NCBI GenBank assembly: GCA_964016885.1
Contig: OZ024740.1
Coordinates: 9,300,001 to 9,364,000, forward strand
Direction: 5' to 3'
Length of the DNA: 64,000 nt
DNA from: Eledone cirrhosa
Taxonomy: Eukaryota
Each line of letters begins with the position of its first letter. The first letter of the stretch is position 1. The notes below the pieces were generated by a model. That model searched no databases and had not been told where the DNA came from. It worked only from the letters and a program-made list of their open reading frames with translations. The position numbers were made by a program, and so were the translations under genes. Shown here piece after piece: positions 6,700-59,000 of this stretch.

Positions 6700-7895
6700 G
6701 GGGAAATGGTCGTGCTCGGTGTGTAGGAAAGGCGTAGGTAGAAACTCCATTTTATGTCCTAAATGCAAAGTATGGGTGCATAAAAGATGTAGTGGGATCA
6801 CAGGTAAGCTAACTAAGAACATAGATTTTACATGTGGCCGGTGCTCTGGTGCAATAAGTAGCAGCAAGTGCCCACACAATACTAGCTCTTTCAATTGCGC
6901 AGAGGGTTCTATAGAAATAGTGGACAGCTTCCGTTACCTGGGCGATAAAATCAGCAGTGGGGGAGGGTGCTCTGAAAGTACTGTAGCTAGAGTCAGAACT
7001 GGTTGGAAAAAGTTCAGAGAGCTTATACCACTATTAGCTGCTAAAGGGTTCTCACTAAAAATGAAAGGCAGGTTGTACGATGCCTGCATACGAACAGCAA
7101 TGCTGCATGGCAGTGAGACCTGGGCATTGTGTGCAGAGGATATACGCAGACTAGAGAGGAACGAAGCTTGCATGCTCCGCTGGATGTGTAACAGTAATAT
7201 ACGTGAACGGCAAAGCATAAACGAACTAAGGAATAAATTAGAGATAAGAGGGATCAGATGTTGTTTACTCGAGAGAAGGCTACGTTGGTATGGACACGTG
7301 ATGCGCATGAAAGTCGATAGCTGTATAACAAAGTGCAGGGCAATAAAGATAGACGGTAGTCACGGAATAGGCAGACCTAGAAAAACCTGGGACGAGCTGA
7401 TAAACTCCGACATCACACACTTACACCTCTCCAAGACAATGTCACTGGACCGAGACCTTTGGCGGTACTCAGTAACAGAGAAGACCCGCCTTACCTAAAT
7501 ATATAGTAAAACCTACTCCAGCCAGTAGGCATCTCTAACAAAATACACCCCGTCCCACCACCCCCACCCCCACCCGATCCACACCACCCCGTTCTATGTA
7601 AAGTTATGTTGGTGCCGCGCCATCGAGGCCGAAACAAATGAGATCGTGTAGGTGTCACGACAAAAAAACACACAGTCCACGCTGTAATGTGGCCGTGTAG
7701 GCAACACGGTAAAAACCTCCCAGACCCACACTGTAAATGTGGTTGGTGTTAGGAAGGGCATCCAACTGTAGAAAACCTGCCAGACAGTCCTATGCGAGCA
7801 AGACAATCACTCTTGCCTCAAGTGGGACTACCCCCGTCCAAACCCATGCAAGCGTGGAACACGGACGTTAAACGTTGATGATGATGATGATGATG
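6700..7895 (+). mobile_element. 5'-truncated RTE-like LINE, copy 1 (~1.2 kb)
   Basis: Nearly identical to ~54846-56043 of the full-length copy. Ends in (TGA)7 tail starting at 7876. Flanked by ATGTC at 6695-6699 and 7896-7900. Confidence 0.97.
6701..7498 (+). pseudogene. C-terminal fragment of the LINE ORF (PHD-like finger, FRYLG motif, C-terminus)
   Basis: GKWSCSVC...EKTRLT* matches the end of the 1056-aa ORF. Lacks the endonuclease and YADD core. Confidence 0.93.
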
Positions 7896-10800
7896 ATGTC
7901 AGTTTTGATTGGTTTGTCAATTTCTATTGGTATTTCAGTTTCGATGGTATATCAGTTTCTATTGTTACATCAGTTCCGATTGGTATATCAGTTTCGATTG
8001 GTATATCAGTTTTTATTGGTACATCAGTTCCGATTGGTATATTAGTTTCGATTGGTATGTCAGTTTCTATTGGTATATCAGTTTCGATTGATATATCAGT
8101 TTCGATTAATATGTCAGTTTCTATTGGTATGTCAATTTCGATTAGTATATCAGTTTCTATTGGTATGTCAGTTTCGATTGGTATGTCAGTTTCTATTGGT
8201 ATATCAGTTTCGATTGGTATATCAGTTTTGATTTGTATATCAGTTTCGATTGGTATGACAGTTTCTATTGGTATGTCAGTTTCTATTGGTATGTCAGTTT
8301 CGATTGGTATGTCAGTTTTATTGGTATGTCAGTTTTATTGGTATGTCAATTTCGATTGGTATATCAGTTTCGATTGGTATGTCAGTTTCTATTGGTATAT
8401 CAGTTTTGATTGGTATGTTAGTTTCTATTGGTATGTCAGGTCTGATTGGTATGTTAGTCCTCGATTCGTATGTCAGTTTCTATTGGTATATCAATTTCGA
8501 TTGGTATGTCAGTTTCTATTGGTCTGTCAGTTTCTATTGGTATATCAGTTTCGATTGGTATGTCAGTTTCGATTAGTATATCAGTTTCTATTGGTATGTC
8601 AGTTTCTATTGGTATATCAATTTCGATTGGTATGACAGTTTTGATTGGTATGTCAGTTTCTATTGGTATATCAGTTTCGATTGGTATGTCACTTTCGATT
8701 AGTATATCAGTTTCTATTGGTATGTCAGTTTCTATTGGTATATCAATTTCGATTGGTATATCAGTTTCGATTAGGATGTCAGTTTCGATTCTTATGTCAG
8801 TTTCGATTGGTATGTCAGTTTCGATTTGTATGTCAGTTTCTATTAGTATGTCAGTTTCTATTGGTATATCAGTTTCTATTGGTATGTCAGTTTTGATTAG
8901 TATGTCAGTTTCTATTGGTATATCAGTTTCGATTGGTATATCAGTTTCTATTGGTATATCAGTTCCGATTGGTATATCAGTTTCGATTGGTATGTCAGTT
9001 TCGATTAGTATATCAGTTTCTATTGGTATGTCAGTTATGATTGGTATGTCAGTTTCGATTTGTATGTCAGTTTCTATTAGTATGTCAGTTTCTATTGGTA
9101 TATCAGTTTCTATTGGTATGTCAGTTTCGATTGGTATGTCAGTTTCTATTAGTATGTCAGTTTCTATTGGTATATCAATTTCGATTGGTATATCAGTTTC
9201 GATTAGTATGTCAGTTTCGATTCTTATGTCAGTTTCTATTGGTATATTAGTTTCGATTGGTATATCAGTTTCTATTGGCATATCAGTTCCGATTGGTATA
9301 TCAGTTTCGATTGGTATGTCAGTTTCGATTACTATATCTGTTTCTATTCGTATGTCAGTTTTGATTGGTTTGTCAGTTTCTATTGGTATATCAGTTTCGA
9401 TGGTATATCAGTTTCTATTGTTATATCAGTTCCGATTGGTATATCAGTTTTGATTGGTATATCAGTTTCTATTGGTATATCAGTTCCGATTGGTATATCA
9501 GTTTCGATTGGTATATCAGTTTCGATTGCTATGTCAGTTTCTATTGGTATGTCAGTTTCTATTGGTATGTCAGTTTCAATTGGTATATCAGTTTCGATTG
9601 GTATGTCAGTTTTATTGGTATGTCAATTTCGATTGGTATATAAGTTTCGATTGGTATGTCAGTTTCTATTGGTATATCAGTTTTGATCGCTATGTTAGTT
9701 TCTATTGGTATGTCAGTTCCGATTGGTATGTTAGTCCTCGATTCGTATGTCAGTTTCTATTGGTATATCAATTTTGATTGGTATGTCAGTTTCTATTGGT
9801 ATATCAATTTCAATTGGTATGTCAGTTTCTATTGGTATGTCAGTTTCTATTGGTATATCAGTTTCGATTGGTATGTCACTTTCGTTTAGTATATCAGTTT
9901 CTATTGGTATGTCAGTTTCTATTGGTATGTAAGTTTCGATTACTATATCAGTTTCTATTCGTATGTCAGTTTTGATTGGTTTGTCAATTTCTATTGGTAT
10001 ATCAGTTTCGATGGTATATCAGTTTCTATTGGTATTTCAGTTTCTATTGTTATGTTAGTCCTCGATTTGTATGTCAGTTTCTATTGGTATGTCAGTTTCT
10101 ATTGGTATGTCAGTTTCAATTGGTATATCAGTTTAGATTGGTATGTCCGTTTTATTGGTATGTCAATTTCGATTGGTATATAAGTTTCGATTGGTATGTC
10201 AGTTTCTATTGGTATATCAGTTTATATTTGTATGTCAGTTTCGATTGGTATGTCAGTTTCTATTGGTATATCAGTTTTGATTGGTATGTTAGTTTCTATT
10301 GGTATGTCAGTTCCGATTGGTATGTTAGTCCTCGATTCGTATGTCAGTTTCTATTGGTATATCAATTTTGATTGGTATGTCAGTTTCTATTGGTATATCA
10401 GTTTCGATTGGTATGTCAGTTTCGATTGGTATGTCAGTTTCTATTAGTACGTCAGTTTCTATTGGTAAATCAGTTTCTATTGGTATGTCAGTTTTGATTG
10501 GTATGTCAGTTTCTATTGGTATATCAGTTTCGATTGGTATATCAGTTTCTATTGGTATATCAGTTCCGATTGGTATATCAGTTTCGATTGGTATGTCAGT
10601 TTCGATTACTATATCAGTTTCTATTCGTATGTCAGTTTTGATTGGTTTGTCAGTTTCTATTGGTATATCAGTTTCGATGGTATATCAGTTTCTATTGTTA
10701 TATCAGTTCCGATTGGTATATCAGTTTCGATTGGTATATCAGTTTCTATTGGTATATCAGTTCCGATTGGTATATCAGTTTCGATTGGTATGACAGTTTC

Positions 10801-16800: not shown

Positions 16801-19380
16801 GTATTTCAATTTCGATTGGTATGTCAGTTTCTATTGGTATGTCAGTTCCTATTGGTATATCAGTTTCGATTGGTATGTCACTTTCGATTAGTATATCAGT
16901 TTCTATTGGTATGTCAGTTTCTATTGGTATATCAGTTTCGATTGGTATGTCAGTTTCGATTGGTATGTCAGTTTCTATTAGTATGTCAGTTTCTATTGGT
17001 ATATCAGTTTCTATTGGTATGTCAGTTTTGATTAGTATGTCAGTTTCTATTGGTATATCAGTTTCGATTGGTATATCAGTTTCTATTGGTATATCAGTTC
17101 CGATTGGTATATCAGTTTCAATTTGTATGTCAATTTCGATTAGTATATCAGTTTCTATTGGTATGTCAGTTATGATTGGTATGTCAGTTTCTATTGGTAT
17201 ATCAGTTTCTATTGGTATATCAGTTTCTATTGGTATGTCAGTTTCTATTGTTATGTTAGTCCTCGATTTGTATGTCAGTTTCTATTGGTATATCAATTTC
17301 GATTGGTATATCAGTTTCGATTGGTATGTCAGTTTCTATTGGTATGTCAGTTTTTATTGGTATGGCGGTTTCAATTGGTATATCAGTTTTTATAGGTATG
17401 TCAGTTTTATTGTTATGTCAATTTCGATTGTGATATCAGTTTCGATTGGTATGTCAGTTTCTATTGGTATATCAGTTTCGATTGGTATATCAGTTTCTAT
17501 TGGTATATCAGTTTCGATTGGTATGTCAGTTTCGATTACTATATCAGTTTCTATTGGTATGTCAGTTTTGATTTGTTTGTTAGTTTCTATTGGTATATCA
17601 GTTTCGATTGGTATATCAGTTTCTATTGTTATATCAGTTCCGATTGGTATATCAGTTTCGATTGGTATATCAGTTTCTATTGGTATATCAGTTCCGATTG
17701 GTATATCAGTTTCGATTGGTATGTCAGTTTCTATTGGTATATCAGTTTCGATTGATATATCAGTTTCAATTAATATGTCAGTTTCTATTGGTATGTCAGT
17801 TTCGATTAGTATATCAGTTTCTATTGGTATGTCAGTTTCGATTAGTATGTCAGTTTCTATTGGTATATAAGTTTTGATTGGTATATCAGTTTTGATTGGT
17901 ATATCAGTTTTGATTGGTATGACAGTTTCTATTGGTATGTCAGTTTCTATTGGTATGTCAGTTTCAATTAGTATGTCAGTTTTATTGGTATGTCAATTTC
18001 GATTGGTATATCAGTTTCGATTGGTATGTCAGTTTCTATTGGTATATCAGTTTATATTTGTATGTCTGTTTCGATTGGTATGTCAGTTTCTATTGGTATA
18101 TAAGTTTTGATTGGTATGTGAGTTTCTATTGGTATATCAGTTTCTATTGGTATATCAGTTTCTATTGTTATATGAGTTCCGATTGGTATATCAGTTTCGA
18201 TTGGTATATCAGTTTCTATTGGTATATCAGTTCCGATTGGTATATCAGTTTCGATTGGTATGTCAGTTTCTATTGTTATGTTAGTCCTCGATTTGTATGT
18301 CAGTTTCTATTGGTATATCAATTTCGATTGGTATGTCAATTTCTATCGGTATGTCAGTTTCTATTGGTAAATCAATTTCGATTGGTATGTCAGTTTTGAT
18401 TTGTATATCAGTTTCGATTCGTATGTCAGTTTCGATTGGTATGTCAGTTTCGATTGGTGTGTCAGTTTCGATTTGTATGTCAGTTTCAATAGGTATATCA
18501 GTTTCGATTCGTATGTCAGTTTCTATTGGTATATCGGTTTCCATTGGTATATCAGTTTCAATTGGTATGTCATTTTCTATTTGTATATCAGTTTCTATTA
18601 GTATGTCAGTTTCTATTGGTAAGTCAGTTTCGATTAGTATATCAGTTTCTATTGGTATGTCAGTTTCGATTGGTATGACAGTTTCTATTGGTATATCAGT
18701 TTCGATTGGTATATCAGTTTCGATTGGTATATCAGTTTCGATTGGTATGTCAGTTTCTATTGGTATGTCAGTTTTTATTGGTATGTCAGTTTCAATTGGT
18801 ATATCAGTTTCGATTGGTATATCAGTTTTGATTAGTATATCAGTTTCGATTGATATGTCAGTTTCTATTGGTATGTCAGTTTTTATTGGTATGTCAGTTT
18901 CAATTGGTATATCAGTTTTGACTGGTATGTCAGTTTTATTGGTATGTCAATTTCGAATGGTATATCAGTTTCGATTGGTATGTCAGTTTCTATTGGTATA
19001 TCAGTTTATATTTGTATGTCAGTTTCGATTGGTATGTCAGTTTTTATTGGTATATCAGTTTTGATTCGTATGTTAGTTTCTATTGGTATGTCAGTTCCGA
19101 TTGGTATGTTAGTCCTCGATTCGTATATCAGTTTCTATTGGTATTTCAATTTCGATTGGTATGTCAGTTTCTATTGGTATGTCAGTTCCTATTGGTATAT
19201 CAGTTTCGATTGGTATGTCACTTTCGATTAGTATATCAGTTTCTATTGGTATGTCAGTTTCTATTGGTATATCAATTTCGATTGGTATATAAGTTTATAT
19301 TAGTATGTCAGTCTCGATTCTTACGTCAGTTTCGATTGGTATGTCAGTTTCGATTGGTATGTCAGTTTCTATTAGTATGT
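7896..19380. repeat. 18-bp satellite array, segment 2 (domain A)
   Basis: Same monomer and same diagnostic variants as segment 1 (GTTCCG, ATTCTTATG, TCACTTTCG, 17-bp CGATGGTAT). Confidence 0.99.
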
Positions 19381-19389
19381 GGAGGCACA

Positions 19390-19445
19390 TGGCTTAGTGG
19401 TTAGAGCATTGGCCTTGCAATCGAAAGGTTGTGAGTTCAATTCTC
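19390..19445 (+). promoter_or_regulatory. Internal RNA Pol III promoter of the SINE (box A and box B)
   Basis: Box A TGGCTTAGTGG at 19390-19400 fits TRGCNNAGYGG. Box B-like GAGTTCAATTCTC at 19433-19445. Spacing is tRNA-like. Confidence 0.85.
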
Positions 19446-19496
19446 AGACTGGGTGATGTGTTGTTTCAATTCTCAGACTGGGTGATGTGTTGTTTC
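19436..19496 (+). repeat. Exact 29-bp tandem duplication inside the SINE
   Basis: TTCAATTCTCAGACTGGGTGATGTGTTGT at 19436-19464 and 19465-19493, followed by TTC. Confidence 0.95.
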
Positions 19497-19757
19497 CTTG
19501 AGCAAGACACTTTATTTCACATTGCTCCAGTTTACTCAGCTGTAGAAATGAGATGATTGGGACTGGGGTCCCTATCATTCCACTGTAAAGTGGTCGTGGA
19601 GGTGCCACGGCAAAAAAAGCACCCAGCACTCACTGTAAATGAGTTTGGTGTTAGGAAGGGCATCCAGCTGTAGAAATCAAGCCAGAATCAGTTCCCGTCC
19701 CACCCTTGCAAGCAGGGAAAAGTGGACGTAAAATGAAATGATGATGAAATGATGATG

Positions 19758-22700
19758 ATGTCAGTTTCTATTGGTATATCAGTTTCTATTGGTATGTCAG
19801 TTTTGATTAGTATGTCAGTTTCTATTGGTATATCAGTTTCGATTGGTATATCAGTTTCTATTGGTATATCAGTTCCGATTGGTATATCAGTTTCAATTTG
19901 TATGTCAATTTCGATTAGTATATCAGTTTCTATTGGTATGTCAGTTATGATTGGTATGTCAGTTTCTATTGGTATATCAGTTTCTATTGGTATATCAGTT
20001 TCTATTGGTATGTCAGTTTCTATTGTTATGTTAGTCCTCGATTTGTATGTCAGTTTCTATTGGTATATCAATTTCGATTGGTATATCAGTTTCGATTGGT
20101 ATGTCAGTTTCTATTGGTATGTCAGTTTTTATTGGTATGGCGGTTTCAATTGGTATATCAGTTTTTATAGGTATGTCAGTTTTATTGGTATGTCAATTTC
20201 GATTGTGATATCAGTTTCGATTGGTATGTCAGTTTCTATTGGTATATCAGTTTCGATTGGTATATCAGTTTCTATTGGTATATCAGTTTCGATTGGTATG
20301 TCAGTTTCGATTACTATATCAGTTTCTATTGGTATGTCAGTTTTGATTTGTTTGTTAGTTTCTATTGGTATATCAGTTTCGATTGGTATATCAGTTTCTA
20401 TTGTTATATCAGTTCCGATTGGTATATCAGTTTCGATTGGTATATCAGTTTCTATTGGTATATCAGTTCCGATTGGTATATCAGTTTCGATTGGTATGTC
20501 AGTTTCGATTAGTATGTCAGTTTCTATTGGTATATAAGTTTTGATTGGTATATCAGTTTTGATTGGTATATCAGTTTTGATTGGTATGACAGTTTCTATT
20601 GGTATGTCAGTTTCTATTGGTATGTCAGTTTCGATTGGTATGTCAGTTTTATTGGTATGTCAATTTCGATTCGTATATCAGTTTCAATTAGTATGTCAGT
20701 TTTATTGGTATGTCAATTTCGATTGGTATATCAGTTTCGATTGGTATGTCAGTTTCTATTGGTATATCAGTTTATATTTGTATGTCTGTTTCGATTGGTA
20801 TGTCAGTTTCTATTGGTATATAAGTTTTGATTGGTATGTTAGTTTCTATTGGTATGTCAGGTCCGATTGGTATGTTTGTCCTCGATTTGTATGTCAGTTT
20901 CTATTGGTATATCAATTTCGATTGGTATGTCAGTTTCTATTGGTATGTCAGTTTCTATTGGTATGTCAGTTTCAATTGGTATATCAGTTTAGATTGGTAT
21001 GTCCGTTTTATTGGTATGTCAATTTCGATTGGTATATAAGTTTCGATTGGTTTGTCAGTTTCTATTGGTATATCAGTTTATATTTGTATGTCAGTTTCGA
21101 TTGGTATGTCAGTTTCTATTGGTATATCAGTTTTGATTGGTATGTTAGTTTCTATTGGTATGTCAGTTCCGATTGGTATGTTAGTCCTCGATTCGTATGT
21201 CAGTTTCTATTGGTATATCAATTTTGATTGGTATGTCAGTTTCTATTGGTATATCAATTTCAATTGGTATGTCAGTTTCTATTGGTATGTCAGTTTCTAT
21301 TGGTATATCAGTTTCGATTGGTATGTCACTTTCGATTAGTATATCAGTTTCTATTGGTATGTCAGTTTCTATTGGTATATCAATTTCGATTGGTATATCA
21401 GTTTCGATTAGTATGTCAGTTTCGATTCTTATGTCAGTTTCGATTGGTATGTCAGTTTCGATTGGTATGTCAGTTTCTATTAGTACGTCAGTTTCTATTG
21501 GTATATCAGTTTCTATTGGTGTGTCAGTTTTGATTGGTATGTCAGTTTCTATTGGTATATCAGTTTCGATTGGCATATCAGTTTCTATTGGTATATCAGT
21601 TCCGATTGGTATATCAGTTTCGATTGGTATGTCAGTTTCGATTACTATATCAGTTTCTATTCGTATGTCAGTTTTGATTGGTTTGTCAGTTTCTATTGGT
21701 ATATCAGTTTCGATGGTATATCAGTTTCTATTGTTATATCAGTTCCGATTGGTATATCAGTTTCGATTGGTATATCAGTTTCTATTGGTATATCAGTTCC
21801 GATTGGTATATCAGTTTCGATTGGTATGTCAGTTTCTATTGGTATATCAGTTTCGATTGATATATCAGTTTCGATTAATATGTCAGTTTCTATTGGTATG
21901 TCAGTTTCGATTAGTATACCAGTTTCTATTGGTATGTCAGTTTCGATTGGTATGTCAGTTTCTATTGGTATATCAGTTTCGATTGGTATATCAGTTTCGA
22001 TTGGTATGACAGTTTCTATTGGTATGTCAGTTTCAATTGGTATATCAGTTTTGATTGGTATGTCAGTTTTATTGGTATATCAGTTTATATTTGTATGTCA
22101 GTTTCGATTGGTATGTCAGTTTCTATTGGTATATCAGTTTTGATTTGTATGTTAGTTTCTATTGGTATGTCAGTTTCTATTGGTATATCAGTTTCTATTG
22201 GTATGTCAGTTTCTATTGGTATATCAGTTTCTATTGGTATGTCAGTTTCTATTGGTATATCAATTTCGATTGGTATATCAGTTTCGATTGGTATGTCAGT
22301 TTCTATTGGTATGTCAGTTTTTATTGGTATGGCTGTTTCAATTGGTATATCAGTTTTGATTGGTATGTCAGTTTTATTGGTATGTCAATTTCGATTGTGA
22401 TATCAGTTTCGATTGGTATGTCAGTTTCTATTGGTATATCAGTTTCGATTGGTATATAAGTTTCTATTGGTATATCAGTTTCGATTGGTATGTCAGTTTC
22501 GATTACTATATCAGTCTCTATTGGTATGTCAGTTTTGATTGGTTTGTTAGTTTCTATTGGTATATCTGTTTCGATTGGTATATCAGTTTCTATTGTTATA
22601 TCAGTTCCGATTGGTATATCAGTTTCGATTGGTATATCAGTTTCTATTGGTATATCAGTTCCGATTGGTATGTCAGTTTCGATTGTTATGACAGTTTCTA

Positions 22701-40458: not shown

Positions 40459-41663
40459 TTCGACATTATCTGGTGGGCTCTTAGAAAACTAGGTGTTGAT
40501 GAATGGCTTGTGAGAGCTATACAAGCCATGTATAAAGAAACAGTTAGCAAGGTTAGAATTAACAACGAATATAGTGAAGAGTTTAGCGTAAAAGTTGGCG
40601 TCCATCAGGGCTCTGTTCTCAGCCCCCTACTATTTATTATTGCCCTTCAGGCTATAACAGAGGAGTTCAAGACAGGCTGCCCATGGGAACTCCTATACGC
40701 AGACGACCTGACACTCATAGCGGAATCAATGGCCGAGCTAGAGAAGAAATTCCAAACATGGAAGCACGGCCTAGAGTCAAAAGGACTTAAAATTAACCTG
40801 GCTAAGACCAAAGTTCTAGTTTGTAGGAAAGAAAACAAGGCGGCGGTCCCTTCTGGGAAATGGTCGTGCTCAGTGTGTAGGAAAGGCGTAGGTAGAAACT
40901 CCATTTTATGTCCTAAATGCAAAGTATGGGTGCATAAAAGATGTAGTGGGATCACAGGTAAGCTAACTAAGAACATAGATTTTACATGTGGCCGGTGTTC
41001 TGGTGCAATAAGTAGCAGCAAGTGCCCACAAAATACTAGCTCTTTCAATTGCGCAGAGGGTTCTATAGAAATAGAGGACAGCTTTCGTTACCTGGGCGAT
41101 AAAATCAGCAGTGGGGGAGGGTGCTCTGAAAGTACTGTAGCTAGAGTCAGAACTGGTTGGAAAAAGTTCAGAGAGCTTATACCACTATTAGCTGCTAAAG
41201 GGTTCTCCCTAAAAATGAAAGGCAGGTTGTACGATGCCTGCATACGAACAGCAATGTTGCATGGTAGTGAGACCTGGGCATTGTGTGCAGAGGATATACG
41301 CAGACTAGAGAGGAACGAAGCTTGCATGCTCCGCTGGATGTGTAACAGTAATATACGTGAACGGCAAAGCATAAACGAACTAAGGAAAAATTAGAGATAA
41401 GAGGGATCAGATGTTGTTTACTCGAGAGAAGGCTGCGTTGGTATGGACACGTGATGCGCATGAAAGTCGATAGCTGTATAACAAAGTGCAGGGCAATAAA
41501 GATAGACGGTAGCCACGGAATAGGCAGACCTAGAAAAACCTGGGATGAGCTGATAAACTCCGACCTCACACACTTACACCTCTCCAAGACAATGTCACTG
41601 GACCGAGACCTTTGGCGGTACTCAGTAACAGAGAAGACCCGCCTTGCCAGTAGGCATCTCTAA
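40459..41663 (+). pseudogene. Disrupted RT fragment of the LINE ORF
   Basis: Contains GVHQGSVLSPLLF, LLYADDL and the PHD-like finger. Has a 1-nt frameshift in the A-run at ~41386-41390 (A5 vs A6) and a 28-bp deletion removing the normal stop after 41645. Confidence 0.93.
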
Positions 41664-42018
41664 CAAAATACACCCCGTCCCACCACCACCACCCCCATCC
41701 CATCCACACCACCCCCGTTCTATGTAAAGTTATGTTGGTGCCGCGCCATCCAGGCCGAAACAAATGAGATCGTGTAGGTGTCACGACAAAAAAACACACA
41801 GTCCACGCTGTAATGTGGCCGTGTAGTCAACACGGTTAAAACCTCCCAGACCCACACTGTAAATGTGGTTGGTGTTAGGAAGGGCATCCAACTGTAGAAA
41901 ACCTGCCAGACAGTCCTATGCGAGCAAGACAATCACTCTTGCCTCAAGTGGGACTACCCCCGTCCAAACCCATGCAAGCGTGGAACACGGACGTTAAACG
42001 TTGATGATGATGATGATG
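40459..42018 (+). mobile_element. 5'-truncated, degenerate RTE-like LINE, copy 2 (~1.56 kb)
   Basis: Matches ~54435-56043 of the full-length copy. (TGA)6 tail from 42002. No target duplication visible. Confidence 0.97.
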
Positions 42019-45000
42019 ATATGAGTTTCTATCGGTATGTCAGTTTCGATTGGTATATCAGTTTCGAATGGTATGTCAGTTTGGATTGGTATGTCAGTTT
42101 CGATTAGTATATCAGTTTCGATTGCTATGTTAGTTCTCGATTTGTATGTCAGTTTCTATTTGTATATCAGTTTCGATTGGTATGTCAGTTTCGATTGGTA
42201 TATCAGTTTCGATTAGTATATCAGTTTCGATTAGTATGTCAATTTCTATTGGTATATCAGTTTCGATTGATATGTCAGTTTCCATTGGTATATCAGTTTG
42301 TATTGGTATGTCAGTTTCTATTAGTATGTCAGTTTCTATTGGTATATCAGTTTCGATTGGTATATCAGCTTCGATTGGTATGCCAGTATAGATTGGTATG
42401 TCAGTGTCGATGGGTATATCAGTTTCGATTGTTATGTCAGTTTCTATTGGTATATCAGTTTCGACTAGTATGTGATTTTCGATTGGTATGTAAGTCCTTG
42501 ATTTGTATGTCAGTTTATATTGGTATATCAGTTTCGATTGGTATATCAGTTTCTATTAGTATATCAGTTACTATTTGTATGTCAGTTTCTATTGGTATAT
42601 CAGTTTCGATTGGTATATCAGTTTCGATTGGTATGTCAATTTCGATTGGTATATCAGTTTCGATTGGTATATCAGTTTCGATTGGTATGTCAGTTTCGAT
42701 TGGTATGTAAGTTTCGATTGGTATATCAGTTTCGATTGTTATGTCAGTTTCTATTGGTATATCAGTTTCGACTGGTATGTTAGTCCTCGATTTGTATGTC
42801 AGTTTCTATTGGTATATCAGTTTCAATTAGTATATCAGTTACTATTTGTATGTCAGTTTCTATTGGTATATCAGTTTCGATTGGTATATCAGTTTCCATT
42901 GGTATGTCAGTTTCTATTGGTATGTCAATTTCGATTGGTATATCAGTTTCGGACGGTATGTTAGTTTCGATTGGTAAGTCAGTTTCGATTGGTATATCAG
43001 TTTCGATTGTTATGTCAGTTTCTATTGGTATGTCAGTTTCGACTGGTATGTGATTTTCGATTGGTATGTTAGTCCTCGATTTGTATGTCAGTTTCTATTG
43101 GTATATCCCTTTCGATTGGTATGTCAGTTTCGATTAGTATATCACTTACTATTTGTATGTCAGTTTATATTGGTATATCAGTTTCGATTGGTATGTCAAT
43201 TTCGATTGGTATATCAGTTTCGATTGGTATATCAGTTTCGATTGGTATGTAAGTTTCGATTGGTATATCAGTTTTGATTGTTATGTCAGTTTCTATTGGT
43301 ATATCAGTTTTGATTATTATATTAGTTACTATTTGTATTTCAGTTTCTATTGGTATATCAGTTTCGATTGGTATATCATTTTCGATTGATATTTCAGTTT
43401 CGATTGGTATATCAGTTTCGATTGGTATGTCAGTTTAATTGGTATGTCAATTTCGATTTGTATATCAGTTTCGGTTGGTATGTTAGTTTCGATTGGTAAG
43501 TCAGTTTCGATTAGTATATCAGTTTCGAATGATATGTCTGTTTCGATTGGTATGTCAGTTTCAATTGGTTTATCAGATTCGATTAGTATGTCAATTTCTA
43601 TTGGTATGTTAGTTTCGATTGGTATGTCAGTTTCTATTGGTATATAAGTTTCTGTTGGTATGTCAGTTTCTATTGGTATGTCAGTTTTTATTGGTATATC
43701 AGTTTCGATTGTTATATCAGTTTCGATTGGTATGTCAGTTTCGATTGGTATGTCAGTTTCTATTGGTATATCAGTTTTGACTGGTATGTTAGTTTCTATT
43801 GGTATGTCAGTTTCGATTAGTATATTAGTTTCTATTGGTATGTCATTTTCGATTGGTATGTTAGTCCTCGATTTGTATGTCCGTTTCTATTGGTATATCA
43901 GTTTCGATTTGAATGTCAGTTTCGATTAGTGTATCAGTTACTATTTGTATGTCAGTTTCTATTGGTATATCAGTTTCGATTGGTATATCAGTTTCGATTG
44001 GTATGTCAATTTCGATTGGTATGTAATTTTCGATTAGTATATCAGTTTCGAATGGTATGTCAGTTTTGATTGGTATATCAGTTTCGATTGGTATGTCAGT
44101 TTCGATTGGTATGTTAGTTTCGATTGGTATATCAGTTTCTATTGCTATGTCAGTTTCGATTGTTATGTCAGATTCTATTTGTATATCAGTTTCGATTGAT
44201 ATATCAGTTTCGATTAGTATGTCAGTTTTTATTGGTATGTCAGTGTCGATTAGTATATCAGTTTCTATTGGTATGTCAGTTTCGATTAGTATGTCAGTTT
44301 CTATTGGTATATCAGTTTTGATTGGTATATCAGTTTCGATTGGTATATCAGTTTTGATTGGTATGTCAGTTTCTATTATTATGTCAGTTTCAATTGGTAT
44401 ATCAGTTTCGATTGGTATGTAAGTTTTATTGGTATGTCAGTTTCGATTGGTATATCAGTTTTGGTTGGTATGTCAGTTTCGAATGGGATGTCAGTTTCTA
44501 TTGGTATATCAGTTTCGATTGGTATGTCAGTTTCTATTGGTATGTCAGTTTCGATTGGTATGTCTGTTTCGATTGGTATATCAGTTTCGAATGGTATGTC
44601 AGTCTCGATTGGTATGTCCGTTTTGATTGGTATAACAGTTTCAATTTGAATGTCTGTTTCGATTTGTATGTCAGTTTCGATTGGTATATCAGTTTTGGTT
44701 GGTATGTCAGTTTCGTTTGGTGTGTTAGTTTCTATTGGTAAGTCAGTATCGATTAGTATATCAGTTTCTATTGGTATGTTAGTTTCGATTGGTATGTTAG
44801 TTCTCGATTCGTATGTCAGTTTCTATTGGTATATCAGTTTCGATTGGTATGTCAGTTTCGATTGGTATGTCAGTTTCAATTGGTAAGTCAATTTCGATTG
44901 GTTTATCAGATTCGATTAGTATGTCAATTTCTATCGGTATATCAGTTTCCATTGGTATATCAGTTTCGATTGGTATGTCAGTTTCGATTGGTATATCAGT

Positions 45001-51721: not shown

Positions 51722-51880
51722 TTTCAAACCTTAATTCCAAACGTATTTTCAAACCCCAATCCCTAATTCTAGCGTATCTTCAAAACAAAAAAAACAAAAT
51801 CCTTTCCTTCTTCCTTCTTCGAAGGCACGGGGCGGTCAAACGCCTAACACTCACAGCCATCATGTGGCCCCCTCCCCTCG

Positions 51881-52021
51881 CTCTCTCTCACTCTCTCTCT
51901 CTCCCTATAAATATATGATAGGAATTCACTTCGCCAAATTTCATTTCATTGCTTGCTGTCCACACGATATTCATGTAAACGTAATGTACAGACTTCATCT
52001 CTCTCTCTCTCTCTCTCCTCT
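51881..52021. repeat. Two (CT)n microsatellite tracts in the LINE 5' region
   Basis: CT runs at ~51881-51903 and ~51999-52021. Confidence 0.85.
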
Positions 52022-52271
52022 CCCTCCACAAATCTTAATTCTAGCGTATTTTCAAAACAATCCATATTTCGTATCAAGTCCAAATAGCCAATCTATCGCT
52101 AAAACAAACTACATTTCCTGTTTCTATTAATTGCTAAATACGTAGGTTTTTGGACGTATTTAACAGAACAAATTTTGTATTTTTGTTAATCGCTTGTTAA
52201 ATGCATGGACCCCACTCAATCATTACCTTCTTGCTAGCTACCCAACACCCCTCCCTCCCACCCCCACTCAC

Positions 52272-52404
52272 CACCATTGCTATTACGTGGACCAATCATA
52301 AAACAGAGCCCCCACGCATCACCAGTATTATTACGCGGACCAATCAGAAACCAGAGGCCTATACTATCGCTTGCCTGGTTGCCTTTCGATATACGATATA
52401 TAAT
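52272..52404 (+). promoter_or_regulatory. Putative promoter elements in the LINE 5' region: duplicated CCAAT module (48-bp period) and downstream TATA-like sequence
   Basis: TATTACGTGGACCAATCATAAAACAGAG (52281) and TATTACGCGGACCAATCAGAAACCAGAG (52329). TATATAAT at ~52397. Function is inferred from motifs only. Confidence 0.4.
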
Positions 52405-52472
52405 GGATGGATGGACTGCGGAATCCTGGAGAGTGAAGGAGAGAGAGAGAAAAATCTGGACGCTCAGCGACA

Positions 52473-55400
52473 ATGCCAAAGATAAAGACAAATTCACCTC
52501 TTGGACGAGAATGCAAGCACTCCTCATTGTTTCGACCGCGGACGGCTAACATAACCCCATCGCCCCCCGCCCCTCACCGCCCCCAACCCCCAAACGCAAT
52601 CCAAAACTTCAGAGTTGGTACCATAAATGTAGGCACCCTAAAGGGTCGCGCTAACGAGGTTGTAGAAATGCTTGAACGTAAGGAGGTCGATGTTTGTTGT
52701 ATTCAAGAGACCAGGTGGAGGGGTGGGTCTGCTAGGTTCATTGAGGGTAAAAAACGATGTTATAAGCTTTTCTGGGTGGGAAACGACGATGGGCTGGGTG
52801 GAGTAGGAATCATGGTAGCAGAAAAGTGGGCAGATAAGATAATAGACGTAAATAGAGTGAACGACAGAATAATTAAAATACGACTTGTCCTCAATAGAAC
52901 TACGGTGACAGTAATATCTGCGTACGCACCCCAATCCGGACTGCCCGGCACTATAAAAGACAGATTCTATGAGACACTGATGCTAACTACCTCCCAAATA
53001 TCCGACAGTGACTATATAATTATCGCAGGCGACCTAAATGGTCACGTTGGACAACATTGTGACGGTTACGACGAAATCCATGGAGGCTATGGGTTTGGTA
53101 CTAGAAATGAGGAAGGCGCCAGAATCCTGGAATTCTGTGATGCAAATAACCTAACTATCTGTAACACTAACTTCAAAAAACGTGACAATCACCTGATCAC
53201 CTATAGATCCGGGGAACACACAAGCCAGGTAGATTATATCTTTACCAGAAGACGTGACAGAGTGTCTGTTGTTAACACTAAATCCCTCCCCCATGAAGAA
53301 TGCACCTCCCAACATAGACTGATAATTAGCGACCTCATAGTCAGGACGAGACGTACTCGACAACAGAAGAGGACTATCCTCAGGAGGAAAATATGGAAGC
53401 TAAAGGACCCCACAGCCAGGAATAAATTTCAAAGCATATTACTTGATGCTTTCGACAGTAAGGAAGAACATTTAGAGTCGGACAATATAGAGGGAGAGTG
53501 GGAATTTCTGAAAGCAAACCTGCTGTTGGCGACAGACGAGGTCTGTGGCTGGAGCAGGCCTGTAGGCAGGAGGAGAGTAACATGGTGGTGGAACAGTAAG
53601 GTGGAGGGGTCAATTAAGGCCAAAAAGCAGGCTTGGAAAGTATGGCGGGATGGGGGAAGTAGAGAGGACTATCAAGTGGCCAGGAGGGAAGCTAGGAGAC
53701 AAGTGTACTTAGCAAGAAGGGAAGCTGAGGAAAGAAAGTTCAAGCATGTTCTACAACGCGATGACCAAAAACGTGAGGTGTTCAGGATTGCTAGGCAATG
53801 CGTCAAGGAAAACCGTGATATTGTCGGGGAGAAGTGTGTACTAAACGACGATGGCACACTTGCCATCACCGACGCTGATAAGAAGGTAGCTTGGAAGTGT
53901 CACTATGAAAGGCTACTAAATGAGGAGAATAATTGGGAGAAAGGCAGTCTCCCCCATATCGACCCAATAGAGGGACAAGCAGTGTTAGTCGAGGGGAGTA
54001 TAATAAGTAAGGCAATCAAGGATATGAAGACTGGTAAGGCGGCTGGGCCTTCGGAAATAGTTGCTGAGATGCTGAAGGCATCTGGCACGGTGGGACACAC
54101 CATGGTCACCCGCATAGTTAACCAAGTCGTACAGAATGGGGTTGTTCCGAAGGACTGGCATAGCAGCATCATCGTTAACTGTTATAAGGGTAAAGGAGAC
54201 GCCCTAGATAGGAGTAACTATAGAGGCATTAAATTAATCGACCAGGTCATGAAGGTCACGGAAAAAGTAATAGCGCAACTAATCAGAGAGAGAATTGACC
54301 TAGATGAAATGCAGTTCGGGTTTGTGTCAGGCAAAAGTACCACAGACGCTCTTTTCATAGTACGACAACTACAGGAGAAGTACCTAGCTAAAGGTAAACC
54401 CCTCTACTTAGCTTTTGTCGACTTGGAGGAAGCCTTCGACAGAGTCCCCCGCTCCATTATCTGGTGGGCTCTTAGAAAACTAGGCGTTGACGAATGGCTT
54501 GTGAGGGCTATACAAGCCATGTATAAAGAAACAGTCAGCAAGGTTAGAATTAACAACGAATATAGTGAAGAGTTTAGCGTAAAAGTTGGCGTCCATCAGG
54601 GCTCTGTTCTCAGTCCACTACTATTTATTATTGCCCTTCAGGCTATAACAGAGGAGTTCAAGACAGGCTGCCCATGGGAACTCCTATACGCAGACGACCT
54701 GACACTCATAGCGGAATCAATGGCCGAACTAGAGAAGAAATTCCAAACATGGAAGCACGGCCGAGAGTCAAAAGGACTTAAAATTAACCTGGCTAAGACC
54801 AAAGTACTAGTTTGTAGGAAAGAAAACAAGGCGGCGGTCCCTTCTGGGAAATGGTCGTGCTCGGTGTGTAGGAAAGGCGTAGGTAGAAACTCCATTTTAT
54901 GTCCTAAATGCAAAGTATGGGTGCATAAAAGATGTAGTGGGATCACAGGTAAGCTAACTAAGAACATAGATTTTACATGTGGCCGGTGCTCTGGTGCAAT
55001 AAGTAGCAGCAAGTGCCCAAAAACTACCAGCTCTTTCAATTGCGCAGAGGGTTCTATAGAAATAGTGGACAGCTTCCGTTACCTGGGCGATAAAATCAGC
55101 AGTGGGGGAGGGTGCTCTGAAAGTACTGTAGCTAGAGTCAGAACTGGGTGGAAAAAGTTCAGAGAGCATATACCACTATTAGCTGCTAAAGGGTTCTCAC
55201 TAAAAATGAAAGGCAGGTTGTACGATGCCTGCATACGAACAGCAATGCTGCATGGCAGTGAGACCTGGGCATTGTGTGCAGAGGATATACGCAGACTAGA
55301 GAGGAACGAAGCTTGCATGCTCCGCTGGATGTGTAACAGTAATATACGTGAACGGCAAAGCATAAACGAACTAAGGAAAAAATTAGAGATAAGAGGGATC

Positions 55401-55643
55401 AGATGTTGTTTACTCGAGAGAAGGCTACGTTGGTATGGACACGTGATGCGCATGAAAGTCGATAGCTGTATAACAAAGTGCAGGGCAATAAAGATAGACG
55501 GTAGTCACGGAATAGGCAGACCTAGAAAAACCTGGGACGAGCTGATAAACTCCGACATCACACACTTACACCTCTCCAAGACAATGTCACTGGACCGAGA
55601 CCTTTGGCGGTACTCAGTAACAGAGAAGACCCGCCTTACCTAA
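52473..55643 (+). CDS. Non-LTR retrotransposon polyprotein: AP-endonuclease + reverse transcriptase with inserted PHD-like zinc finger (1056 aa)
   Basis: APE motifs GTINVGTL, CCIQETRW, SAYAP, GDLNGH, QVDYI, SQHRL. RT motifs YRGIKL, QFGF, DLEEAFD, QGSVLSPLLF, YADD, KTK, FRYLG. C-terminal RLRWYGHVMR and GRPRKTW. No stops or frameshifts. Confidence 0.96.
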   Translation: MPKIKTNSPLGRECKHSSLFRPRTANITPSPPAPHRPQPPNAIQNFRVGTINVGTLKGRANEVVEMLERKEVDVCCIQETRWRGGSARFIEGKKRCYKLFWVGNDDGLGGVGIMVAEKWADKIIDVNRVNDRIIKIRLVLNRTTVTVISAYAPQSGLPGTIKDRFYETLMLTTSQISDSDYIIIAGDLNGHVGQHCDGYDEIHGGYGFGTRNEEGARILEFCDANNLTICNTNFKKRDNHLITYRSGEHTSQVDYIFTRRRDRVSVVNTKSLPHEECTSQHRLIISDLIVRTRRTRQQKRTILRRKIWKLKDPTARNKFQSILLDAFDSKEEHLESDNIEGEWEFLKANLLLATDEVCGWSRPVGRRRVTWWWNSKVEGSIKAKKQAWKVWRDGGSREDYQVARREARRQVYLARREAEERKFKHVLQRDDQKREVFRIARQCVKENRDIVGEKCVLNDDGTLAITDADKKVAWKCHYERLLNEENNWEKGSLPHIDPIEGQAVLVEGSIISKAIKDMKTGKAAGPSEIVAEMLKASGTVGHTMVTRIVNQVVQNGVVPKDWHSSIIVNCYKGKGDALDRSNYRGIKLIDQVMKVTEKVIAQLIRERIDLDEMQFGFVSGKSTTDALFIVRQLQEKYLAKGKPLYLAFVDLEEAFDRVPRSIIWWALRKLGVDEWLVRAIQAMYKETVSKVRINNEYSEEFSVKVGVHQGSVLSPLLFIIALQAITEEFKTGCPWELLYADDLTLIAESMAELEKKFQTWKHGRESKGLKINLAKTKVLVCRKENKAAVPSGKWSCSVCRKGVGRNSILCPKCKVWVHKRCSGITGKLTKNIDFTCGRCSGAISSSKCPKTTSSFNCAEGSIEIVDSFRYLGDKISSGGGCSESTVARVRTGWKKFREHIPLLAAKGFSLKMKGRLYDACIRTAMLHGSETWALCAEDIRRLERNEACMLRWMCNSNIRERQSINELRKKLEIRGIRCCLLERRLRWYGHVMRMKVDSCITKCRAIKIDGSHGIGRPRKTWDELINSDITHLHLSKTMSLDRDLWRYSVTEKTRLT
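54852..54989 (+). other. PHD-type C4HC3 zinc-finger coding segment within the RT
   Basis: C-x2-C-x10-C-x2-C-x4-H-x2-C-x14-C-x2-C, with W-x-H and F-x-C, located between KTKVL and FRYLG. Confidence 0.8.
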
Positions 55644-55788
55644 ATATATAGTAAAACCTACTCCAGCCAGTAGGCATCTCTAACAAAATACACCCCGTCC
55701 CACCACCACCACCCCCACCCGATCCACACCACCCCGTTCTATGTAAAGTTATGTTGGTGCCGCGCCATCGAGGCCGAAACAAATGAGA

Positions 55789-56012
55789 TCGTGTAGGTGT
55801 CACGACAAAAAAACACACAGTCCACGCTGTAATGTGGCCGTGTAGGCAACACGGTAAAAACCTCCCAGACCCACACTGTAAATGTGGTTGGTGTTAGGAA
55901 GGGCATCCAACTGTAGAAAACCTGCCAGACAGTCCTATGCGAGCAAGACAATCACTCTTGCCTCAAGTGGGACTACCCCCGTCCAAACCCATGCAAGCAT
56001 GGAACACGGACG
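55789..56012 (+). other. Structured 3' UTR module of the LINE (serial hairpins plus terminal stem-loop), shared with the SINE
   Basis: Stems TCGTG/CACGA, CCAC/GTGG, CCGTGT/ACACGG, CCACA/TGTGG, GTTGG/CCAAC, and CGTCC/GGACG enclosing CCATGC-AA-GCATGG. The SINE copy shows compensatory changes. Confidence 0.75.
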
Positions 56013-56043
56013 TTAAACGTTGATGATGATGATGATGATGATG

Positions 56044-59000
56044 ATATCAGTTTCGATTGGTATGTCAGTTTCTATTATTATGTCAGTTTCAATTGGTATA
56101 TCAGTTTCGATCGGTATGTAAGTTTTATTGGTATGTCAGTTTTGATTGGTATATCAGTTTTGGTTGGTATGTCAGTTTCGATTGGGATGTCAGTTTCTAT
56201 TGGTATATCAGTTTCGATTGGTATGTCAGTTTCTATTGGTATATCAGTTTTGATAAGTATATCAGTTTCTATTGGTATGTCAGTTTCGATTGGTATGTCT
56301 GTTTCGATTGGTATATCAGTTTCGAATGGTATGTCAGTCTCGATTAGTATGTCCGTTTTGATTGCTATAGCAGTTTCTATTTGTATGTCAGTTTCGATTT
56401 GTATGTCAGTTTCTATTGGTATATCAGTTTCATTTGGTGTGTTTATTTCTATTGGTATGTCAGTTTCGATTAGTATATAAATTTCTATTGGTATGTTAGT
56501 TTCGATTGGTATGTTAGTTCTCGATTTGTATGTTAGTTTCTATTGGTATATCAGTTTCGATTGGTATGTCAGTTTCGATTAGTATATCAGTTACTACTTG
56601 TATGTCAGTTTCTATTGCTATATCAGTTTTGATTGGTATATCAGTTTCGATTGGTATGTCTGTTTCGATTGGTATATCAGTTTCGATTGGTATGTCAGTT
56701 TCGATTGGTATGTAAGTTTCGATTAGTATATCTGTTTCGAATGGTATGTCAGTTTTGATTGGTATATCAGTTTCGATTGGTATGTCAGTTTCGATTGGTA
56801 TGTAAGTTTCGATTAGTATATCAGTTTCGAATGGTATGTCAGTTTTGATTGGTATATCAGTTTCGATTGGTATGTCAGTTTCGATTGGTATGTCAGTTTT
56901 GTTTGGTATATCAGTTTCGATTAGTATGTCAGTTTCTATTGGTATATCGGTTTCCATTGCTATATCAGTTTCGATTGGTATTTCAGTTTCTATGGGTGTA
57001 TCAGTTTCTATTTGTATGTCAGTTTCAATTGGTATGTCAGTTTCTATTGGTATATCAGTTTTAACTGGTATGTTAGTTTCTATTGGTATGTCAGTTTCGA
57101 TTAGTATGTTAGTTTCTATTGGTATGTCATTTTCGATTGGTATGTTAGTCCTCGATTGGTATATCAGTTTCTATTGATATGTCAATTTCGATTGGTATGT
57201 CAGTTTCGATTGTTATGTATGTTTCGATTAATATATCAGTTTCGATTGGTATGTCAGTTTCTATTGGTATGTTTGTTTCGATTGGTATATCAGTTTCTAT
57301 TGGTATGTCAATTTCGATTGGTATGTCAGTTTAGATTGGTATATCAGTTTCGATTGGTATGTCAGTTTCTATTATTATGTCAGTTTCAATTGGTATATCG
57401 GTTTCGATTGTTATGTAAGTTTTATTGTTATTTCAGTTTCGATTGGTATATCAGTTTCGAACGGTATGTCAGTTTCGATTGGTATGTCAGTTTTCGATTG
57501 GTATATCAGTTTCGATTAGTATGTCAATTTCTATTGGTATATCAGTTTCGATTGGTATGTCAGTTTCTATTGGTATATCAGTTTGTATTGGTGTGTCTTT
57601 TTCTATTAGTATGTCAGTTTCTATTGGTATATCAGTTTCGATTGATATATCAGTTTCTATTGGTATGTCAGTTTCGATTGGTATGTCAGTTTCTATTGTT
57701 ATGTCAGTTTCGATTGGTATGTCTGTTTCGATTGATATATCAGTTTCTATTGGTATGTCAGTTTCGATTGGTATGTCAGTTTCTATTGTTATATCAGTTT
57801 CGATTGGTATGTCAGTTTCGATTGGTATGTCAGTTTCGATTGATATATCAGTTTCGATTGTTATGTCAGTTTCTATTGGTATATCAGTTTCGATTGTTAT
57901 GTCAGTTTCGATTATTATATCAGTTTATATTGGTATGTCAGTTTCTATTGGTATGTCAGTTTCGATTGGTATGTCAGTTTCTATTGTTATGTCAATTTCG
58001 ATTGGTATGTCAGTTTAGATTGGTATATCAGTTTCGATTGGTATGTCAGTTTCTATTATTATGTCAGTTTCAATTGGTATATCGGTTTCGATTGTTATGT
58101 AAGTTTTATAGTTATTTCAGTTTCGATTGGTATATCAGTTTCGATTGGTATGTCAGTTTAGATTGGTATATCAGTTTCGATTGGTATGTCAGTTTCGATA
58201 GGTATGTAAGTTTCGATTAGTATATCAGTTTCGAATGGTATGTCAGTTTTATTGGTATGTCAATTTCGATTGGTATATCAGTTTCGGTTGGTATGTTAGT
58301 TTCGATTGGTATATCAGTTTCTGTTGGTATGTCAGTTTCGATTAGTATATCAGTTTCTGTTGGTATGTCAGTATATATTGGTATGTCAGTTTTTATTGGT
58401 ATATCAGTTTCGATTGTTATATCAGTTTCGATTGTTATGTCAGTTTCGATTGGTATGTCAGTTTCGATTGATATATCAGTTTCGCTTGTTATGTCAGTTT
58501 CTATTGGTATATCAGTTTTTACTGGTATGTTCGTTTCTATTGGTATGTCAGTTTCGATTAGTGTATTAGTTTCTATTGGTATGTCATTTTCGATTGGTAT
58601 GGTAGTCCTCGATTTGTATGTCTGTTTCGATTGATATATCAGTTTCTATTGGTATGTCAGTTTCGATTGGTATGTCAGTTTCTATTGTTATGTCAGTTTC
58701 GATTGGTATGTCTGTTTCGATTGATATATCAGTTTCTATTGGTATGTCAGTTTCGATTGATATGTCAGTTTCTATTGTTATATCAGTTTCGATTGGTATG
58801 TCAGTTTCGATTGGTATGTCAGTTTCGATTGATATATCAGTTTCGATTGTTATGTCAGTTTCTATTGGTATATCAGTTTCGATTGTTATGTCAGTTTCGA
58901 TTATTATATCAGTTTATATTGGTATGTCAGTTTCTATTGGTATGTCAGTTTCGATTGGTATGTCAGTTTCTATTGTTATGTCAATTTCGATTGGTATGTC

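Follow-up and report, generated by a model that had tools for sequence, protein, structure and literature searches.

A 5' Leader Segment of RTE Retrotransposons Probably Relocated to the 3' UTR of a Successful LINE Lineage in Eledone cirrhosa

An RTE-Type LINE and a SINE Inserted in an 18-bp Satellite

The window, which is the whole stretch of 64,000 nucleotides analyzed here (positions 9,300,001 to 9,364,000 of contig OZ024740.1 from Eledone cirrhosa, genome size 3.0 Gb), consists mostly of an 18-bp satellite into which one LINE, in three copies, and one SINE have inserted. All of these insertions have the same orientation, and their (GAT)n passes straight into the satellite.

The only full-length LINE is a non-satellite block at 51733..56045 on the plus strand, inserted in the satellite and ending with (GAT)n. 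Its family is here called alpha. The family names were coined in this study; beta is a sister LINE family and gamma is a third RTE family of this genome. These three families may already carry names elsewhere. The 5' start of the alpha copy recurs in 8 of 30 loci (L242-L271), the window copy being one of the 8. The 5' UTR (51733..52472, plus strand) is followed by a single ORF of 1056 aa (52473..55643, plus strand), in which Pfam detected an AP endonuclease (PF03372), a reverse transcriptase (PF00078) and a PHD finger (PF00628). The PHD finger (aa 796-839; 54858-54990) is located immediately behind the reverse transcriptase domain.

Like members of the RTE clade, alpha encodes AP endonuclease and reverse transcriptase in a single reading frame, its 3' end is composed of short tandem repeats, (GAT)n at 56022-56045, and 5'-truncated copies exist. 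This architecture and a leader motif common to RTE-2/-4_EBu indicate that alpha is probably an RTE-type LINE; the assignment also rests partly on its similarity to RTE elements. Two 5'-truncated alpha copies on the plus strand, at 6700..7898 (99.5% identity over 403 nt) and 40467..42027 (97.9% identity over 380 nt), carry the same 3' UTR module as the full-length copy.

The SINE (19379..19760, plus strand) is of the tRNA-type/CORE type. It contains one beta-type A-B-A-C module (19580-19686; units defined below) and a gamma-type terminal stem-loop (19693-19735). The A and B boxes of the tRNA type were read by eye, and relaxed ARAGORN gave a poor tRNA-like fold with many mismatches. The CORE-like stretch resembles, by eye, the BivaCORE-SINE2 primer in the supplement of PMC4824008. 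A 29-nt internal duplication (19439-19496) covers the B box together with the spacer that leads up to the CORE-like stretch.

Structure of the 3' UTR Module

The module is composed of hairpin B with an A-tract, hairpin A, and the 24-nt motif C. The repeat unit is ~48 nt long and consists of hairpin B with a GG-containing loop, the A-tract, a C-rich word, and hairpin A. All features in the alpha 3' UTR are on the plus strand. Unit B1 (55789..55818) has a hairpin at 55789-55805 and an A-tract at 55807-55813; a possible stem 2 is predicted between GTGT (55797-55800) and ACAC (55813-55816). Hairpin A1 (55822..55837) has GTAA within its loop. Unit B2 (55838..55868) has a 6-bp hairpin (55838-55854), an A-tract and CCTCC, and only GG:CC pairs in the homologous register. 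Hairpin A2 (55871..55887) is immediately 5' of motif C (55888..55926), which is also conserved among distantly related animals in their RTE 5' leaders. In the motif C unit, a TTGG/CCAA stem and pairing of GGCA (55902-55905) with TGCC (55923-55926) are predicted. A degenerate extra A/B unit was read from the sequence at 55738..55765, upstream of the module as first reported, and it is clearer in the older copies L026, L075 and L345.

An ATG at 55937..55939, 10 nt past motif C, stands at the place of the gamma start codon and opens a 28-codon frame. The frame is not kept in beta and is likely a relic. A terminal two-tier stem-loop is predicted at 55980..56012, ahead of (GAT)n, and gamma LINEs, like the SINE, end in a similar fold. 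Between motif C and this stem-loop, a second long hairpin is predicted at 55931-55975; gamma and the SINE do not have it. The module ends ~95 nt before the repeat tail.

The repeat unit is not a chance occurrence. A 19-mer of the module occurs 116,609 times in the genome, versus 0 for the reversed control. The number of tandem units is slippage-prone: runs with a period of 47-48 nt and 5 to 57 units were found in nine places, one of them directly behind a LINE ORF. The first-pass annotation described about 2.5 repeats of a two-hairpin unit. The hairpins are where it placed them, but the last half unit is a separate element, motif C, and the count represents just one state of a variable repeat. 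Minisatellite runs of 24-57 B-A copies are present in L091, L065, L108 and L359, and the run in L108 begins directly behind the LINE ORF. In one alpha subfamily (L058:3916-4030, minus strand, and similar copies), a 112-nt duplication of A-B-A-C has doubled motif C within the 3' UTR.

Stems and Loop Pairings Among Copies

The copies compared were collected from 120 ten-kb stretches of the genome and from loci around search matches. A profile alignment of unit B yielded 770 distinct hits, of which 635 are complete; the set includes decayed copies, units from minisatellites and pattern-enriched loci. In these 635 units, the core of B stem 1 is constant except for CpG-type decay, while the two end pairs vary among T-A, G-C, C-G and mismatches. 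A separate alignment with MAFFT contained 15 hand-picked representatives, several distant rows of which are misaligned. In this alignment the proposed structure is paired in 77.7% of cells, and 7 of 20 pairs changed on both sides. Shuffling gave a value as high in 16 of 500 cases, a figure that does not represent a probability. Helix 1 (stem 1) is paired in 80% of cells and shows two-sided change in three of its four pairs, two of them from a single row each.

All the stems quoted in the first-pass annotation are present in the LINE (55789-55887) and in the SINE (19580-19593, 19594-19610, 19620-19623 and 19628-19644). Its claim of compensatory stem changes is borne out between families by helices 1 and 3 of the 15-row alignment. 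Of the SINE stem given as ACTCA/TGAGT, the double change of the inner pair from A-T to T-A is real, but the fifth pair is private to the window copy; all 91 other matching copies have G there, and the stem of the family is CTCA/TGAG. In the metagenome locus L200, stem B keeps its pairing with a different sequence. These changes support compensatory covariation of the hairpin stems between families.

The pairings between the loop and the downstream bases behave differently from the stems. The four pairs in the homologous register are formed in 0.83, 0.98, 0.72 and 0.74 of the 635 units. GG:CC barely varies across B units, and because it is nearly invariant, it is little informative on covariation. 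The next two stem 2 pairs are broken in alpha unit 2, and one is broken in the second unit of beta. An older unit (L362, L381, L382 and L388) does not have GG at all. Only the junction pair of stem 2 shows the alternatives T-G, C-G and T-A, and it competes with stem 1, which the same base is able to close. Families with a broken stem 2 are abundant. In the 15 representatives, B stem 2 is paired in 68% of cells, the two AGG:CCT helices in 44% and 56%, and GGC:GCC of unit C in 87% with no two-sided change.

The covariation once proposed between the loops and the bases behind the A-tract is not supported; two of its three pairings are off-register or family-specific. GTGT:ACAC of LINE unit 1 and GGTG:CACC of the SINE do share the homologous register, but AGG:CCT does not. 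In unit 2 it is displaced by two positions, the in-register pairing of this unit is reduced to GG:CC, and older versions show GTT there. In unit 3, the word behind motif C is CCT in 88 of 381 copies and GCC in 328 of 381; the candidate pairing GGC:GCC suits this unit better than AGG:CCT.

Thus the hairpins, whose stems covary, are supported, and the H-type pseudoknots, whose loop/downstream pairs scarcely do, are no more than plausible. The gamma, SINE and ancestral units are each compatible with a compact H-type pseudoknot that has a 5-bp stem 1, a 1-nt loop, a 4-bp stem 2 and an A-rich linker. Pseudoknot-free folding energies are ordinary, without thermodynamic excess (z of -0.13 for the LINE, -0.07 for gamma and +0.26 for the SINE module). 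Hairpin A is weakly more stable than controls in the metagenome: z is below -1 in 9 of 25 groups, versus 3 of 24 controls.

The SINE Combines Parts of Beta and Gamma

The B unit of the SINE is that of beta, and its last 50 nt are those of gamma (alignment score 83, versus 56 for alpha). Motif C is present in 49 of the 55 sampled CORE matches. The tails of these 49 SINEs are from gamma in 44 cases, from beta in 4, from another family in 1, and from alpha in none. The LINE and the SINE of the window are not directly paired, and by their termini they do not form a stringent LINE/SINE pair. Because the unit of the SINE belongs to beta and its end to gamma, the original comparison of LINE and SINE was in effect a comparison of two sister LINE families. 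A segment common to a LINE and a SINE need not mark partners.

The Module in the 5' Leaders of Gamma and Other RTE Families

In gamma, the module lies in the leader, upstream of the endonuclease. Motif C and unit B are each present in 25 of 30 copies, and tandem B-A repeats are frequent. The ATG is 6-9 nt past the GCC word in 20 of 21 pattern-parsed copies, and it is in frame in the one copy that was translated (L417). The gamma ORF runs straight into a short bare terminal stem-loop, and its 3' UTR has no module. The 5' UTR of the window alpha copy lacks motif C on either strand, and a candidate match within 900 nt upstream was seen in 1 of 30 alpha N-terminal loci (L249).

A motif C pattern matched 121 metagenome loci, with ~1500 estimated in the collection, in many unrelated repeat families. 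Two of the 123 oriented loci carry an RTE endonuclease on the motif's own strand, 170-200 nt further downstream; in no case does an ORF end upstream in sense. Five other loci match on the opposite strand. In L221, an in-frame ATG is right after motif C. A B-like unit is also present in L200, L172, L217 and L232. In two large metagenome families, motif C is ~25 nt behind a shared start. The motif was also found in contigs of other organisms (four sequencing contig sets), and in the supplement of PMC7245038 it is seen in the leaders of hagfish RTE-2/-4_EBu and in hagfish SINEs. Viral contigs gave 0 matches to a motif C pattern, and the motif is absent from lepidopteran SINE supplements. In the SINE-like metagenome elements L162, L185, L195, L196, L213, L220 and L238, motif C is directly behind the tRNA-like head.

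The end of the module is 6-14 nt ahead of the ATG in gamma, two metagenome RTEs, and hagfish RTE-2/-4_EBu. This short distance between motif C and the start codon is constant across four RTE families. A segment matching the module is a part of the 5' leader of autonomous RTE LINEs, as expected for the 5'-UTR part of bipartite elements. Judged from these positions, the module is an RTE 5'-leader segment, and the 5' leader is where it was located ancestrally.

In L200:900-1050 and L232:180-300, a stretch resembling, by eye, the Ceph-domain RTE segment (PMC5786205) immediately precedes unit B. The two conserved leader segments, Ceph-domain-like and unit B, can apparently be neighbors. Identity of the module with the Ceph-domain segment was rejected, as the motif words are absent from the 2018 supplement of PMC5786205.

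A Probable Transfer to the 3' UTR

A first quick tree of C-terminal fragments contained 43 rows after thinning of near-identical alpha copies; one distant row (L273_146) was mislabelled. The 33 copies with the 3' module fell in one branch with a support of 98. The second tree was a quick search on ~200 residues of 20 hand-picked rows (13 with the 3' module, 5 gamma and 2 distant outgroup rows), with L273_146 dropped. All 13 LINE copies that carry the 3' module are on the same side of one branch (SH-aLRT 98). Grouping of beta with gamma was rejected (p-AU 0.002). An ATG is retained at the corresponding position in both alpha (55937) and beta.

In the simplest history, the common ancestor of alpha and beta would have captured a leader-plus-tail piece in a single event. 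The capture into the 3' UTR may have occurred by a template switch onto a bipartite (leader plus tail) RNA or a SINE, and the captured units would then have been multiplied in the tail by slippage. We consider it probable, with considerable room for doubt, that the module is an RTE leader segment likely aiding the start of translation, which was captured once into the 3' UTR of this lineage and multiplied there. In the 3' UTR the stems would have been kept while the pseudoknot pairs decayed, and the module is likely a mild structural passenger there. Its retention throughout the alpha/beta radiation argues against this last point and for some 3' function rather than a pure passenger.

Possible Functions of the Module

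It is likely that the native role of the module is in translation initiation. This is suggested by the short distance between motif C and the start codon, constant in four RTE families. The structured segment just before the start codon would help the ribosome begin translation, with units B and C possibly folding into small H-type pseudoknots in the leader. As in IRES-like elements, the structure ends at a fixed short distance ahead of an in-frame start codon. IRES-like roles have been proposed for structured non-LTR leaders (PMC6765202), and this reading is in line with them. A 9-nt complementarity between motif C and the 18S rRNA of this genome is not significant; 7% of shuffles matched it, and pairing with 18S rRNA was dropped as support for the role in translation. 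The 18S rRNA gene of this genome (L422:1501-4368) is ~2.87 kb long, far longer than the 1831-position model. The position before the ATG would also fit a promoter element.

A bolder version, which we regard as speculative and rather unlikely, is that B-A-C is an animal-wide ribosome-recruiting RNA of RTE leaders, in which hairpins with a GG loop and a GNRA-type loop and a pseudoknot would precede the AUG. The tail copies would then act as a tandem translation enhancer, and SINEs would keep the module to ride ribosomes near newly made reverse transcriptase. If true, this would explain the recurrence of RTE 5'-UTR pieces in SINE bodies. No function is known for conserved SINE bodies and RTE 5'-UTR fragments, according to PMC4824008 and PMC5786205.

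Motif C could instead act as DNA, as an internal promoter or transcription factor site of RTE leaders, with the hairpins being secondary. The 24-nt sequence is kept across distant animals (~1500 metagenome stretches estimated), and such a site would be suited by its position in the two large metagenome families, ~25 nt from the start that their copies share. The CAGGAAG of motif C presumably resembles an ETS site. Regulator binding was suggested by Kojima (2018) for a conserved RTE 5'-UTR sequence (PMC5786205). Double compensatory changes in hairpins A and B, however, point to a single-strand structure, a promoter 150 nt from the LINE 3' end would be of little use to the LINE, and the fixed short distance is to the ATG. 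This explanation is unlikely.

The first-pass annotation proposed tandem 3'-UTR pseudoknots acting, as one of several options, in RT recognition, in which case they would be bound by the LINE protein and needed for mobilization. The module is indeed present in 33/33 copies of the alpha/beta branch of the first tree, the rows of which were labelled by that trait, and in most sampled CORE SINEs (49/55), and the avian R2 protein binds a 3'-UTR pseudoknot (PMC12222951). We nevertheless consider such a role improbable. Gamma ends in a bare stem-loop without the module, 44 of the 49 SINEs with the module end in the tail of gamma, and the ancestral place of the module is the 5' leader. In addition, 5'-truncated alpha copies often start inside or after parts of the module, and units with a broken stem 2 are abundant. 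In avian R2 the element occupies the final 67 nt (PMC12222951), whereas ~95 nt separate the end of the module from the repeat tail. It is likely that the reverse transcriptase recognizes the terminal stem-loop (55980..56012) with (GAT)n.

Protection of the RNA by the folds, such as blocking of a 5'-to-3' exonuclease in leader and tail alike, is very unlikely. Tandem small folds capable of pseudoknots in a 3' UTR would fit it, and the 5' ends of alpha copies are commoner in 55740-55890 than in the ORF (raw hazard of 0.1-0.3 versus ~0.05 per 100 nt). Yet these ends are spread over many positions with no edge at the 5' side of the units, several of them are duplications or subfamily junctions, and no Rfam xrRNA model matched the LINE.

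Unit B has what we take to be a pistol-like outline of P1 plus an A-tract, but a self-cleaving ribozyme, the catalytic element once suggested, is hardly credible: no Rfam ribozyme matched (E up to 5 in the LINE and up to 1 in four leaders), core motifs of hammerhead, pistol and twister are absent, a lone HDV-L3-like word sits inside hairpin A, 68 alpha copies have scattered 5' ends with none in common (four at 55814 are internal duplications), and cleavage at the module would sever the ORF from the tail. In the four leaders, the Rfam search gave only sub-threshold miRNA-like matches, to an inverted repeat in L221. HDV-like ribozymes have been reported from RTE elements (PMC6765202), and their structured 5' leaders, like those of R2 and L1Tc, were proposed to aid ORF initiation, as is proposed here. 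Unlike those HDV-like or IRES-like leaders, the module has no HDV fold, no Rfam match and no cleavage signature.

Comparison with Known Systems

The occurrence of RTE 5'-UTR pieces in bipartite elements and in SINE bodies is well documented (PMC5786205, PMC7245038). There, as here, a small-RNA head precedes an RTE 5'-UTR piece that is fused to an RTE 3' end. The likeness extends to motif C in both LINE leaders and SINEs of hagfish, and to the combination of parts of two RTE families in one SINE. In contrast, autonomous LINEs here bear the leader piece in their own 3' UTR, where it is tandemly repeated. For bipartite elements no RNA structure of the piece is described in the available text, and the word "pseudoknot" appears 0 times in that of PMC7245038. 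In the openly accessible literature that was searched, including available text of two octopus repeat papers, neither the fold nor its transfer into the 3' UTR of a LINE was found described.

The traffic would here have run in the less usual direction: an autonomous LINE lineage took up a leader or bipartite piece in its 3' UTR and went on to reach more than 100,000 motif copies. If the module were only a passenger, it would be a case of ordinary retrotransposon patchwork. Short, conserved in distant animals and placed immediately ahead of the start codon, it has natural variants in which each stem is intact or broken, and so it is a testable candidate. The annotated feature is real but was partly misread: it is a segment of RTE leaders that was probably moved to the 3' end of a highly successful LINE lineage; its hairpins are supported, and its pseudoknots and its role in translation are putative.

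Stringent LINE/SINE pairs share a terminal stem-loop (PMC3747384), as do CR1-14_CGi and BivaV-SINE2 (PMC4824008). The terminal stem-loop and short repeats common to the SINE and gamma are comparable, and a similar fold ends alpha; the module, unlike these, is upstream of the stem-loop and dispensable at the gamma 3' end. The pseudoknot of avian R2 (R2Tg; PMC12222951) is likewise small, contains an A-rich tract and belongs to the 3' UTR of a non-LTR element. It is terminal, solved and required for priming, whereas the module is internal, predicted, leader-derived and partly decayed.

The Deu/Nin domain (BivaMD-SINE1 and Nla_Nin; PMC4824008, PMC4758252) differs from the module in that its ACCC can pair with an upstream segment and its loop need not hold GG. 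Homology to the Meta-domain was rejected, as the look-alike in BivaMD-SINE1 lies in its Deu/Nin part and pairs differently; the resemblance is at most a lead to a possible homology. In the Deu/Nin domain, a CGTG/CACG hairpin with an A-rich linker and ACCC behind it is, over ~16 nt and by eye only, like unit B of gamma.
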